Shown here: in pieces, positions 39,089-40,825 of the stretch
Numbering within the stretch: position 1 is the first letter of the stretch
How the letters are laid out: every line of letters starts with the position of its first letter
NCBI GenBank assembly: GCA_023392125.1
Contig: JAEVZS010000001.1
Span: forward strand, 1 to 51,284
Source: Bacteroidota bacterium
GTDB lineage: Bacteria; Bacteroidota; Bacteroidia; Cytophagales; Cytophagaceae
Length of the DNA stretch: 51,284 nt
Reading direction: 5' to 3'
The notes under the pieces: model-generated
What the model saw: only the letters and a program-made list of their open reading frames with translations
What the model was told of the DNA's origin: nothing
Database searches by the model: none
Made by a program: the position numbers and the translations under genes

Positions 39089-40825
39089 TTAGCTGTTGAA
39101 TTCTTCCTTTTCACTCCACTTCAATGCACCCCCCAATTCCATGCTGTTAAACTCCAGATGTATAACTCTGCGTCTTTTTTGCTGAGTGGATTTGGAAGAA
39201 GCGTGAAGCAGCAGTGGTTTCATAATATGTATACCGCCTTCATCTACCTCACAGTTGGTTGCGACGCTTGATTCGGTAATGAGTTTTATTTCCTCATCGT
39301 TGTGTATTTTTTTGTGCGAGCCGGGAATGATTTTCAAAGCCCCGTTGTCAACAGAAGTGTTATCCAGATGAATACGAATGGTTACGCCTTTTTTCAGGAT
39401 TTCTTCCGGCGGTATTACGCTGATTATCCCGTCTTTTTGAGTCCAGCTTTTGTACCCGGGAGTTTCAGTTTTTTCCACGACATTGATGGGAATATCCTGA
39501 TGCCAGATCACATACCAGTTCGTTTCCGGGGTCTTATCGAAGAATATGGCTTTGGTGAGAAAAAGATCATGTCCAAGGTTGCCAAGAATTTTTTTAAGAT
39601 TGGAGTTGATGCAATATGCTTTTAGTTCCGGAATTTCCTTAAAGAGCTGCCTGATAGCATACGCTTTATCGCCGCTTCCTGATCGGGAATCCTGATAGTT
39701 GCCGATCAGTTTTCTCATCTCCCGGATTGATTTCCGGGAATAAATGTGATTGGCAATGATGTATCCTCTGGCTTCCAGCCTTGCCGCATAATTTTCCAGA
39801 GATCGTTCATTAAGCTCTGTATCATATTGACTGATAGCATTCATAAGCCGTTCTTTAATAGTGGTTCTTAATCTGGCCGGTGAAATAACCTTTATCCGGT
39901 CCCCAAATGCCAGAATATCTCTCTCCAGTTCATAGTTTAGCTGAACGAAAAGTGCTATGTATACACCTTCGTCTGTGATTTTGAGCTTCTTCTGACTATG
40001 ATGCAGTGGTTTGGTGAGTACATAAGGAGCATTTTCATGGTAGGCGAGTAAAATGACTTCCTGAGGCTGATCGCCTTCGTTTACGGTGACTCCGATGACA
40101 TGATCGAAATAGGAGGCGACTTCCTCTTCATTGCATTCCATCAGAGTCCTGTCAGATGTTTTCAGATGCTCGATCCGGTCCAGAGCCAGCAGCATATAGC
40201 CGGTATTCTTTTTTCGTTTGCCCAGTACAAACCAGCGATTGCGATGCTCTTTCAGCAGGAACGGGTGAAACACGAAGCTGCTTTCCTGTCTCGCCTTAAA
40301 TGAACGATAGGTTATTTCAAGGCATTTTTTTGCCAGAATCGCCTGATATGTCGGGTCAATAAACTCCAGCCCCTTGAGATTGTCGTTTTTCTCCAGATCA
40401 ATAATTGAGCGTTCGTGCGTTTTGGAAGTATAAATCTTGTCTTCGAGCTTCTGCACCATACCGCTAAGTTCTCTGAAATGTGTAAATCCCTTAAACTGTT
40501 TCAGAATGCTCACCACCTCGGTTAGTTTGCCCAGGTCCTGGTCGGTCAGCGGGATATTGGTAATGGAATACTCGGGATCTTCGTATGTATAATACTTTTT
40601 GTCTATTACCACAACGGGTGCGTTGTACCCCAGTTTTTCGCTGCGCATGATCTGAATATCCATTTGCACTGTTCGTCTGCTTACACCTTTATCAATTCCT
40701 TCAAATTCATAGAGCGCTTCCGAGCAGGCCTCAATCAGATCTTCCAGCGTCCATTTGCGGTAGCGGTTGCGCAGGCAGTTATCAATGGTGGTATACCGGA
40801 TCAGGGCATTGCGGTTTACAGGCAT
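39089..40825 (-). CDS. Fusion protein: HTH-WYL-WCX transcription-regulator architecture fused to a C-terminal phytanoyl-CoA dioxygenase (PhyH)-like Fe(II)/2-oxoglutarate oxygenase domain
   Basis: 578 aa. The N-terminal ~340 aa have the arrangement of Bacteroidota WYL regulators. The WYL-domain core motif is RNRWFVLGKRKKNTGYMLLALDRIEHLK. A WCX-like extension follows, ending in FGDRIKVISPARLR. The C-terminal ~230 aa carry PhyH-family iron-binding motifs: WHQD (HxD) and ALKIIPGSHKK (distal His in the PGSH context). Confidence 0.6.
   Translation of the reverse strand: MPVNRNALIRYTTIDNCLRNRYRKWTLEDLIEACSEALYEFEGIDKGVSRRTVQMDIQIMRSEKLGYNAPVVVIDKKYYTYEDPEYSITNIPLTDQDLGKLTEVVSILKQFKGFTHFRELSGMVQKLEDKIYTSKTHERSIIDLEKNDNLKGLEFIDPTYQAILAKKCLEITYRSFKARQESSFVFHPFLLKEHRNRWFVLGKRKKNTGYMLLALDRIEHLKTSDRTLMECNEEEVASYFDHVIGVTVNEGDQPQEVILLAYHENAPYVLTKPLHHSQKKLKITDEGVYIALFVQLNYELERDILAFGDRIKVISPARLRTTIKERLMNAISQYDTELNERSLENYAARLEARGYIIANHIYSRKSIREMRKLIGNYQDSRSGSGDKAYAIRQLFKEIPELKAYCINSNLKKILGNLGHDLFLTKAIFFDKTPETNWYVIWHQDIPINVVEKTETPGYKSWTQKDGIISVIPPEEILKKGVTIRIHLDNTSVDNGALKIIPGSHKKIHNDEEIKLITESSVATNCEVDEGGIHIMKPLLLHASSKSTQQKRRRVIHLEFNSMELGGALKWSEKEEFNS

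Follow-up and report, generated by a model that had tools for sequence, protein, structure and literature searches.

RNA-damage sensing and the induction of RtcB in bacteria without RtcR are largely unexplained. In the window, by which we mean the whole 51,284-nucleotide stretch of Bacteroidota DNA analysed here, a gene encoding a WYL-type regulator fused to an oxygenase lies beside an operon for the RNA ligase RtcB. This arrangement raises the questions of whether the fusion protein controls the operon and what its oxygenase domain contributes. On the basis of a comparison set of 80 related loci, we propose that the fusion regulator is the probable master switch of the RNA-repair cluster, comprising the tRNA-like RNAs, SPFH, RlaP and RtcB. 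SPFH/tRNA-like/RlaP modules were predicted in 2016, and no experimental handle on them was found in the literature searched; the locus supplies a candidate regulator, an exact predicted operator and a promoter architecture.

Domain structure and conservation of the regulator

The regulator gene and the domains of its N-terminal half are as follows.

39089..40825 (-): wHTH-WYL-WCX-PhyH fusion regulator gene, 578 aa (ORF, Pfam, full-length homologs, AF2 model)
40556..40825 (-): residues 1-90, winged helix-turn-helix, DNA-binding (AF2 secondary structure, Foldseek, PADLOC, weak Pfam match)
40160..40357 (-): residues 157-222, WYL sensor domain with the invariant motif KE-RNRWF (Pfam PF13280)
39839..40066 (-): residues 254-329, WCX domain (Pfam PF25583, DriD C-domain profile matches)

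The preliminary description of this DNA had read the gene as a single 578-aa ORF with HTH-WYL-WCX and PhyH modules, and the ORF, Pfam and AF2/Foldseek evidence all agree with that reading. The WYL domain matches PF13280 at residues 157-222 (E 8e-12, exceeding the cut-off), with R195, N196, R197, W198 and F199 invariant across homologs, and the WCX domain matches PF25583 at residues 254-329 (E 5e-6; 27.2 bits against a cut-off of 23.9) and, in a profile search, the DriD C-domain structures 7u02 and 7tzv. The HTH is weak in Pfam (HTH_11, E 0.024, sub-threshold), and the AF2 secondary structure places three helices and a beta wing at the N terminus. The AF2 model has a pLDDT of 82, with uncertain inter-domain geometry (pTM 0.54), and in Foldseek the protein aligns with full-length DriD and PafBC across ~350 columns (E 1e-11 to 1e-12). 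The fusion protein is thus a DriD/PafBC-like wHTH-WYL-WCX protein. A PADLOC WYL model also spans residues 19-318 (E 2e-20); as PADLOC returned generic WYL matches for the regulator and none for its neighbours, a known anti-phage defence system was rejected.

An assembly chimera or frameshift can be ruled out because the same fusion recurs in over 120 proteins and across hundreds of genomes. The more than 120 homologs, which are 569-615 aa long, share the same three Pfam domains, relatives are encoded in the genomes of at least 592 species, and an in-frame stop between the two halves occurs in a single locus (L033). The homolog survey that had been suggested at the outset therefore establishes a real fusion. 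The fusion had also been said not to be recognised as described. In keeping with this, no published description of a WYL-oxygenase fusion was found in the literature searched, outside which Burroughs & Aravind 2016 lay; however, the protein is not rare, and belongs to a large, generically annotated family.

The divergent operon and its structured RNAs

The regulator gene lies back-to-back with an operon comprising a tRNA-Tyr mimic, a YrlA-like RNA, an SPFH gene, two RlaP genes and RtcB. The SPFH genes on both sides of the regulator and the SPFH-RlaP-RlaP-RtcB order, noted earlier from the letters, are confirmed by Pfam (38157-38942 and 41640-46002).

40991..41074 (+): tRNA-Tyr(GUA)-like RNA gene, with C8 and a long variable arm (Rfam, CM, covariation)
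41100..41270 (+): structured YrlA-like non-coding RNA (RNAalifold covariation, partial Rfam YrlA match)
41101-41151: two 5' hairpins of the YrlA-like RNA
41180-41249: tRNA-like domain of the YrlA-like RNA (closing stem, T-arm, hairpin and D-arm)
41254-41270: extra T-arm of the YrlA-like RNA
41640..42731 (+): SPFH/Band-7 protein, first protein gene of the regulated operon (Pfam Band_7, E 6e-32)
42782..43540 (+): RlaP nucleotidyltransferase, first copy (Pfam RlaP, E 7e-69)
43522..44574 (+): RlaP nucleotidyltransferase, second, longer copy (Pfam RlaP, E 1.4e-22)
44590..46002 (+): RtcB RNA ligase (Pfam RtcB, E 5e-84)
38157..38942 (-): second SPFH gene, downstream of the regulator (Pfam Band_7)

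In the 60 loci whose flanking sequence extends to 5 kb or more, RtcB, SPFH or RlaP lies on the divergent strand in 50, and RtcB itself is divergent from the regulator in 44; orthologs of the first SPFH gene are divergent from the regulator in 31 loci. The second SPFH gene may be co-transcribed with the regulator; it gave no tblastn match in the 80 loci, so that relatives do not carry it at this position. Four stand-alone regulators (L071, L076, L077 and L079) have unrelated neighbours, so that the linkage between regulator and operon is not universal.

The gene 165 bp from the regulator had been called tRNA-Tyr. It does have a cloverleaf and a GUA anticodon and scores 36 bits against the Rfam tRNA cut-off of 29 (97 bits with CM R1), but it is rejected by ARAGORN, which calls homologs in other loci tRNA-Tyr, and it carries C8 in place of U8, a substitution that is invariant in the subtype. 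The cloverleaf is 96% paired, and 14 of its 24 pairs are changed on both sides, a level reached in none of 500 shuffles. In some orthologs the anticodon loop is lost or the T-arm carries an insertion, and in some relatives arrays of 8-19 tRNA genes occupy the position of the tRNA-like gene. We predict that this 'tRNA-Tyr' is a band-7-associated tRNA mimic (b7a-tRNA), a concept described in bioRxiv 10.1101/312249.

RNAalifold assigns the YrlA-like RNA 33 pairs, with compensatory changes in 27, and the RNA is conserved in 31 of the 80 loci, its presence going with that of SPFH (Fisher p 6e-15). Against Rfam YrlA (RF02553) it reaches 34.8 bits, below the cut-off of 69, and matches model positions 23-86 only, which correspond to the tRNA-like domain; the match thus falls short of the gathering score and does not take in the Ro60-binding stem. 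No Rsr (Ro60/TROVE) partner was found among the window ORFs scanned or the called genes of L084. For both RNAs covariation was decisive, the folding of single sequences to minimum free energy being uninformative (z -0.5 and -1.0). The string CUGAUGAG within the YrlA-like RNA was considered as a hammerhead core and discarded, with no Rfam hammerhead match and no GAAA element. An 84-aa ORF in the leader (41359-41613) shows no protein-level conservation, and this stretch is therefore treated as non-coding.

Band-7/SPFH - b7a-tRNA - RlaP - RtcB RNA-repair systems were predicted by Burroughs & Aravind 2016 (NAR 44:8525), as cited in bioRxiv 10.1101/312249. According to that preprint, such systems place SPFH beside RtcB together with a tRNA-like ncRNA, RlaP and sometimes YrlA, and our locus matches this composition. 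To this picture the present analysis adds an operator with its promoter architecture, support from covariation, and the arrays of tRNA genes.

A predicted operator and its regulon

Two elements lie between the regulator gene and the divergent RNAs.

40877..40895 (+): 19-bp operator TGCGCAAAAAGACTGCGCA, where the regulator is predicted to bind (sole copy in the window; conserved in related loci)
40905..40912 (+): AnnTTTG box (CAACTTTG), predicted to be the -7 element in the promoter for the RNA-SPFH-RlaP-RtcB transcription unit

The operator has the form TGCGCA-N7-TGCGCA, or T(G/A)CGCA-N7-TGCG(C/T)A across relatives, and in the 80 related loci (1.39 Mb) it matches the operon strand 119 times and the opposite strand 3 times. 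In the window it lies ~40 bp from the start codon of the regulator; the corresponding distance is 36-42 bp in most related loci. Upstream of other genes in the set, the operator is 39-111 bp away from RtcB and 38-41 bp away from RlaP1. The gap between the operator and the AnnTTTG box, the latter being what we take to be the Bacteroidota -7 consensus, is fixed at 13 nt in 118 copies (TTTG conserved at 90-98%, A at 81%), and a -33 TTTG is absent from these 118 copies of operator plus box. Transcription of the RNA-SPFH-RlaP-RtcB unit is predicted to start near 40919; a sigma-70 promoter and terminator scan was uninformative for Bacteroidota.

The module of operator and AnnTTTG box precedes RtcB, RlaP, RNA-SPFH and tRNA-array units in relatives, and stand-alone 335-aa regulators retain the same operator. 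We assign the operator to the fusion regulator because this is the only regulator gene conserved at the locus. A putative sequence-specific operator is therefore placed at the regulator's own promoter and at those of its targets, as in the class of WYL regulators, and the set of such operators across loci defines what appears, by sequence comparison, to be a regulon. The tie between the regulator and the RtcB operon, which had been recognised as one of adjacency, is now much stronger because of the divergent synteny described above and because the operator is common to the regulator, RtcB, RlaP and RNA-SPFH units. Single tRNA mimics and full tRNA arrays would thus fall under the same predicted control, in parallel with the experimentally studied tRNA-array/rtcB/slipin regulon of Anabaena.

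The nearest models for how the regulator may work are DriD of Caulobacter and PafBC of Actinobacteria, which have the wHTH-WYL-WCX architecture and fold in common with the fusion regulator and whose structures with RNA polymerase (PDB 9pfq, 9fnd) show them as activators. In these systems the site lies directly upstream of the -10/-7 element and replaces the -35/-33 element. The same position is observed here, and from that position and from homology we infer that the fusion regulator is an activator rather than a repressor; a site overlapping the -33 region could equally serve repression, as with TrcR. There are clear differences from DriD and PafBC: the fusion regulator is found in Bacteroidota, uses the TGCGCA-N7-TGCGCA operator, carries an extra 235-aa Fe(II)/2OG oxygenase after the WCX domain and is predicted to control RNA-repair and tRNA-like genes instead of DNA-damage genes. 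Its sequence identity to DriD is ~15%.

We therefore favour, as a reasonably likely account, a dedicated transcription factor of a Bacteroidota RNA-repair and translational-stress regulon with an accessory oxygenase. A dimer of the regulator would bind the 19-bp site through its wHTH domains; by standing in for the missing -33 element, the site would let the regulator work as DriD and PafBC do, as a ligand-gated activator, and the regulator would also autoregulate its own divergent promoter. The WYL domain would sense single-stranded nucleic acid, its most likely ligands here being damaged RNA or fragments of tRNA; the regulator would then be a functional counterpart of RtcR and TrcR. RtcR, a CARF/sigma-54 activator of rtcBA, senses damaged tRNAs (PMC7790460), and TrcR, an Anabaena RHH repressor, jointly controls a tRNA array, rtcB and a slipin gene when translation is under stress (PMC10272220, PMC8421152). 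The regulatory task that we propose is the same, namely to turn on RtcB, and in Anabaena also the tRNA array and SPFH, upon RNA or translational damage (PMC7790460; PMC10272220, PMC8421152). In contrast, the fusion regulator is unrelated to both in protein family, sensor domain and promoter type, and neither RtcR nor TrcR has an enzyme domain. In our favoured account the oxygenase domain would be an accessory input, reset or oligomerisation module, and neither a DNA-binding element nor the primary sensor.

Role of the oxygenase domain

The C-terminal part of the regulator forms the following feature.

39092..39793 (-): residues 345-578, PhyH-clade Fe(II)/2OG oxygenase with predicted ligands H442, D444 and H541 and the 2OG-binding R552

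The expected C-terminal PhyH-type Fe(II)/2OG oxygenase with an intact triad is indeed present, with a Pfam PhyH match at residues 429-553 (E 1.4e-11) and the double-stranded beta-helix fold of the PhyH clade. The make-up of the triad has to be revised. The PGSH histidine (H504), which had been counted as a ligand, is Q or F in several orthologs, whereas H442, D444, H541 and R552 are invariant in intact members, that is, in 57 of the 68 fusions, and in 29 stand-alone relatives. In addition, H541 (LLHAS) aligns with His205 of FtmOx1, presumably an iron ligand there, and H504 aligns with FtmOx1 His173, which we take not to be one. The predicted iron triad is therefore H442-x-D444...H541, accompanied by R552, with H541 as the distal ligand, and H504 is rejected. 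Enzymes of the PhyH clade (human PhyH, EctD, SnoK, proline hydroxylases, AviO1, HygX and FtmOx1) likewise have an HxD...H triad and an Arg ~11 residues past the distal His; they differ in that identity is 12-20% and that the domain here is fused to a transcription factor. The AlkB, TET and JmjC clades are ruled out by Pfam and by structural comparison.

Stand-alone oxygenase relatives of ~235 aa form a large family with the same active-site invariants as the fusion domain. Across the contexts examined, these relatives showed no recurring neighbour with a link to RNA; they include members beside a RimJ/L-type GNAT or within a RiPP-like radical-SAM cluster, and one carries a fusion to Clp_N. The identity of the active-site centre to that of the stand-alone enzymes suggests that the oxygenase domain is probably catalytically active on the same substrate; this is probably not an RNA base but a small molecule or a peptide.

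The role of this activity in the regulator is best judged from its loss. Of the 68 fusions, 10 have a decayed domain; 11 loci are without the domain, and 1 is split by a stop codon. The regulator, operator and operon persist where the oxygenase has been lost (11 loci) or inactivated (10) among the 80 related loci. As it has been repeatedly lost or inactivated while these other elements remain, the domain appears to be an accessory and evolutionarily dispensable module. Orthologs with an intact, dead or absent oxygenase are in effect natural 'experiments', and Bacteroidota that can be cultured, among them Pontibacter, Algibacter, Olleya and Reichenbachiella, make the system testable.

The pattern of loss also bears on whether the oxygenase could itself be the primary sensor, so that the regulator is switched by binding or turnover of a specific substrate, or by how much O2, Fe(II) or 2OG is available. 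The substrate would then be a translation-targeting small molecule or peptide, or an RNA-derived ligand held by the WYL domain, with the oxygenase making, destroying or reporting the signal. The intact triad in most fusions and the purifying selection on the C-terminal half (mean identity 49%) would fit such a trigger enzyme, as would the neighbourhoods and fusion of the oxygenase relatives noted above. The structural neighbours HygX, AviO1, EvdO1/O2 and KanJ act on ribosome-targeting antibiotics, and the analogous Anabaena regulon responds to such antibiotics (PMC10272220, PMC8421152). However, the likeness to antibiotic-tailoring enzymes is at the level of the clade and says nothing about substrate, and a domain that is lost or a pseudo-enzyme in ~21 of 80 loci, with operator and operon unchanged, seems too dispensable for a primary sensor. 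We therefore regard this reading as rather doubtful. Equally doubtful is its fuller form, a trigger-enzyme transcription factor in which an active oxygenase is physically coupled to the WYL sensor and, by oxidising a molecule that arises from stress, sets or resets the expression of an RNA-repair regulon, decoy or spare tRNAs included. If true, a WYL regulator gated by oxygenase chemistry would be a first, and the Band-7/b7a-tRNA/RtcB systems would gain their first defined sensor.

It is still less probable that the oxygenase fold is structural only, serving as an oligomerisation or docking module (for example, for SPFH, RtcB or RNA polymerase) with catalysis irrelevant even where the triad is intact. 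The pseudo-enzyme versions, whose metal ligands are gone, do keep the fold and the RIHLDD...NG...PGSH core, and inactive PhyH-fold subunits occur in other complexes (8fnc_14). The invariance of four catalytic and ~15 pocket residues in 57 fusion orthologs and in the stand-alone enzymes would nevertheless be hard to explain without catalysis.

The weakest reading is the AlkB-style RNA-lesion demethylase of the preliminary description, an RNA/tRNA base demethylase or hydroxylase that would repair lesions and also regulate ligation genes: the gene adjoins tRNA-like and RNA-repair genes, and WYL domains can bind single-stranded nucleic acid (DriD-ssDNA structures) and could present RNA to the active site, but we consider it highly improbable, as the fusion protein has neither an AlkB Pfam match nor an AlkB fold or sequence signature, its active-site invariants recur unchanged in widespread stand-alone enzymes found in RNA-unrelated contexts, the domain is repeatedly lost or inactivated, and the tRNA-like and YrlA-like RNAs occur whether or not the oxygenase is intact (L049, L050, L058, L069 and L070 are examples).

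Fusion gene and its relatives

Pfam matches to WYL, WCX and PhyH bear out the preliminary description of a single ORF that fuses a WYL regulator to an oxygenase, and the neighbouring genes (an SPFH gene downstream and a divergent SPFH-RlaP-RlaP-RtcB operon) are as it gave them. Residues are numbered on the window protein.

39089..40825, minus strand: regulator ORF, 578 aa
Residues 157-222: WYL domain (Pfam, above curated cut-off)
Residues 254-329: WCX domain (Pfam, above curated cut-off)
Residues 429-553: PhyH domain (Pfam, above curated cut-off)
38157-38942: SPFH gene downstream of the regulator
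40877-40895: predicted operator, TGCGCAAAAAGACTGCGCA, single copy in the window, within the best-conserved intergenic block
40991-41074, operon (plus) strand: tRNA-like gene
About 41100-41270, operon strand: YrlA-like RNA (Rfam YrlA, sub-threshold, and RNAalifold)
41640-46002: divergent SPFH-RlaP-RlaP-RtcB operon

The best 120 database matches are 569-615 aa long with 58-68% identity, and a survey of these homologues showed that 119 keep all three Pfam domains. With each species represented by a single genome, relatives were encoded in at least 592 genomes, from Cytophagales, Flavobacteriales, Saprospirales and related Bacteroidota. Conservation of the fusion in both sets rules out an assembly chimera. 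In one related locus (L033:10001-11707), an in-frame stop cuts the WYL half off from the PhyH half, which reflects either a true split of the gene or an error in sequencing. No mention of a WYL-PhyH or WYL-2OG oxygenase fusion was found in the literature searched, which covered sources other than Burroughs & Aravind 2016.

The N-terminal module aligned with full-length DriD and PafBC over ~350 columns (Foldseek E ~1e-11 to 1e-12), and a profile search with the regulator matched DriD C-domain structures. An AlphaFold2 model built from an alignment of 25 orthologs averaged 82 in pLDDT, against a pTM of just 0.54; thus, the single domains are reliable but their mutual arrangement is not.

Predicted operator and the divergent RtcB operon

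The proposal that the protein regulates the neighbouring ligation genes is supported by the divergent gene order and by a predicted operator before the regulator, RtcB and RlaP. Of 80 related loci, 60 extend at least 5 kb upstream, and in 50 of these RtcB, SPFH or RlaP genes are divergent from the regulator. Nucleotide-level conservation of the intergenic DNA reaches across families with only ~55-60% protein identity, and the best-conserved block adjoins the regulator gene. The 19-bp motif within this block, searched with up to two substitutions in 1.39 Mb of related loci, gave 119 matches on the operon strand versus 3 on the other, and was placed as follows.

To the regulator start codon: 36-42 bp in the majority of loci
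Before RtcB: 39-111 bp
Before RlaP1: 38-41 bp
Before SPFH, across the intervening RNA genes: about 600-1000 bp

Two RtcB types stand under the same motif (loci L001-L066), with 60-73% versus only ~28-31% identity to the window RtcB; the latter occurs mainly in Flavobacteriales, and some loci have both. Control of the RtcB operon by the regulator is strongly supported by comparative sequence evidence.

An AnnTTTG box lies exactly 13 nt after the motif in 118 copies (TTTG at 90-98%, A at 81%), and none of these copies has TTTG at the -33 position. Many genomes (L003, L004, L006, L009, L010, L014, L066 and others) carry two or three operator-plus-AnnTTTG modules, one each before the RNA-SPFH, RtcB and RlaP units, so that the regulon there is split over several promoters; the window has a single module. 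We take TAnnTTTG to be the -7 promoter element of Bacteroidota, which, with the fixed 13-nt gap, would place the operator at about -43 to -25. DriD and PafBC are activators that stand in for the -35 element from a site at about this position, and the Foldseek matches included structures of both in complex with RNA polymerase. By analogy, we infer that the regulator is an activator, which would act from the predicted operator as DriD and PafBC do; alternatively, it may be a repressor at this site. Two hairpins, GATCAGG...CCTGATC (40921-40942) and CCCGTCCGGA...TCCGGACGGG (40957-40983), lie in the predicted leader, after the promoter and before the tRNA-like gene, in a stretch poorly conserved in relatives.

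In structure, the regulator groups with DriD and PafBC. The functionally nearest systems are RtcR, which senses damaged tRNAs (PMC7790460), and Anabaena TrcR, whose repression of a tRNA L-array, of rtcB and of a slipin gene is lifted by translational stress (PMC10272220, PMC8421152). The well-defined, testable regulon and the natural variants of the oxygenase domain give the system its value, as does the tie of RtcB control to tRNA mimics or arrays.

RNA genes of the operon strand

The gene at 40991-41074, initially described as tRNA-Tyr, was missed by ARAGORN in the window; the Rfam tRNA model gives it 36 bits, and a covariance model made from its orthologs gives it 97. The cloverleaf itself stands: it is 96% paired, with 14 of 24 pairs changed on both sides (0/500 shuffles match; slid controls reach 35-52% pairing). 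The anticodon is GUA, position 73 is A and the variable arm is long. Its status as an ordinary tRNA-Tyr is less secure. The operon-linked subtype has an invariant C8-G9, C8 replacing U8, whereas the Flavobacteriales genes form a different subtype with U8-U9; some orthologs either lack the GUA anticodon loop (L054:5318-5409) or have a T-arm insertion (L026:6451-6560). Because of the invariant C8, the lost loop and the insertion, the gene seems more like a mimic than a decoder. It fits the prediction by Burroughs & Aravind 2016 of a 'band-7-associated tRNA', and the gene system of the window is of the Band-7 / b7a-tRNA / RlaP / RtcB type predicted there, in both cases as bioRxiv 10.1101/312249 presents that prediction.

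The YrlA-like RNA scores 34.8 bits on Rfam YrlA (cut-off 69), matching the tRNA-like domain of the model only; RNAalifold predicts 33 pairs, 27 of them with compensatory changes. It is present in 31 of the 80 loci, in 28 alongside SPFH (Fisher p 6e-15). Ro60/TROVE genes were looked for among the scanned ORFs of the window, and none turned up.

At the position of the tRNA-like gene, with the regulator gene on one side and the SPFH/RtcB genes on the other, several related loci carry operon-strand arrays in which 8-19 tRNA genes have different anticodons (L011:3241-5308, L019:2978-4994, L046:8166-9816, L062:2792-4133, L023:5968-7354, L051:1587-3373, L038:9061-9861). The array starts 68-531 nt after an operator copy in L046, L062, L038 and L023. 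These arrays resemble the stress-induced tRNA L-array of Anabaena.

Oxygenase domain and other features of the window

Besides the tRNA status, the distal iron ligand is the second correction to an otherwise confirmed observation. H442 and D444 (WHQD), H541 (LLHAS) and R552/R553 are invariant in orthologs with an intact domain. The PGSH histidine, H504, had been placed in the iron triad; it is rejected as the distal ligand, being Q or F in several orthologs and aligning with His173 of FtmOx1, which is not known to be a ligand, while H541 lies opposite His205, the distal iron ligand of that enzyme.

State of the oxygenase domain in the window protein and the proteins of 80 related loci
Triad and Arg intact: 57 (window and 56 loci)
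Fold retained, metal ligands gone (e.g. WHQI...LLLT, WQQR...LLLQ): 10 loci
Truncated where the contig stops: 1 locus
In-frame stop between regulator halves: 1 locus
Domain absent, regulator 335-341 aa: 11 loci

Identity of the N-terminal half to the window protein is 61-63%, equal in all classes; that of the C-terminal half averages 49% with an intact triad versus 32% with a decayed one. Stand-alone 335-aa regulators have the operator motif at the same position. We read the oxygenase as dispensable for regulation and, judging from its residues, probably still catalytic in most lineages.

Stand-alone oxygenase relatives (~235 aa; 270 clusters at E <=1e-30, 2530 at E <=1e-3) share the active-site invariants and sit in varied genomic neighbourhoods unrelated to RNA, which leaves the suggested AlkB-like repair role unsupported. 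The original interpretation thus holds in part: regulation of the RtcB operon is supported, and the oxygenase may, as also suggested, process the ligand of the WYL domain. One relative adjoins a RimJ/L-type GNAT acetyltransferase, one is fused to Clp_N and one to a carrier-protein (PP-binding) domain. In two further loci (L085:1354-5747, L086:216-4609), a relative comes after a radical-SAM enzyme and four ~105-aa ORFs paralogous to one another; the cluster looks RiPP-type, a hint that this oxygenase subfamily may act on a peptide. The domain in the regulator thus reads as an ordinary enzyme recruited as an accessory module.

Elsewhere in the window, a minus-strand gene (26902-33198) encodes a 2098-aa protein with many near-identical ~75-aa repeats, with Ig_7 domains and, at the C-terminus, a T9SS sorting domain, and another (37596-37976, minus) a cysteine-rich protein of 126 aa that contains three DUF326 repeats (Pfam PF03860, labelled Csp). 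Transposase fragments (HTH_Tnp_1 and rve; about 49800-50760, locus handle L084:67-1023) lie ~4 kb beyond RtcB, with a bicupin gene (46091-47347) and a tRNA-Cys gene (47970-48042) in between.
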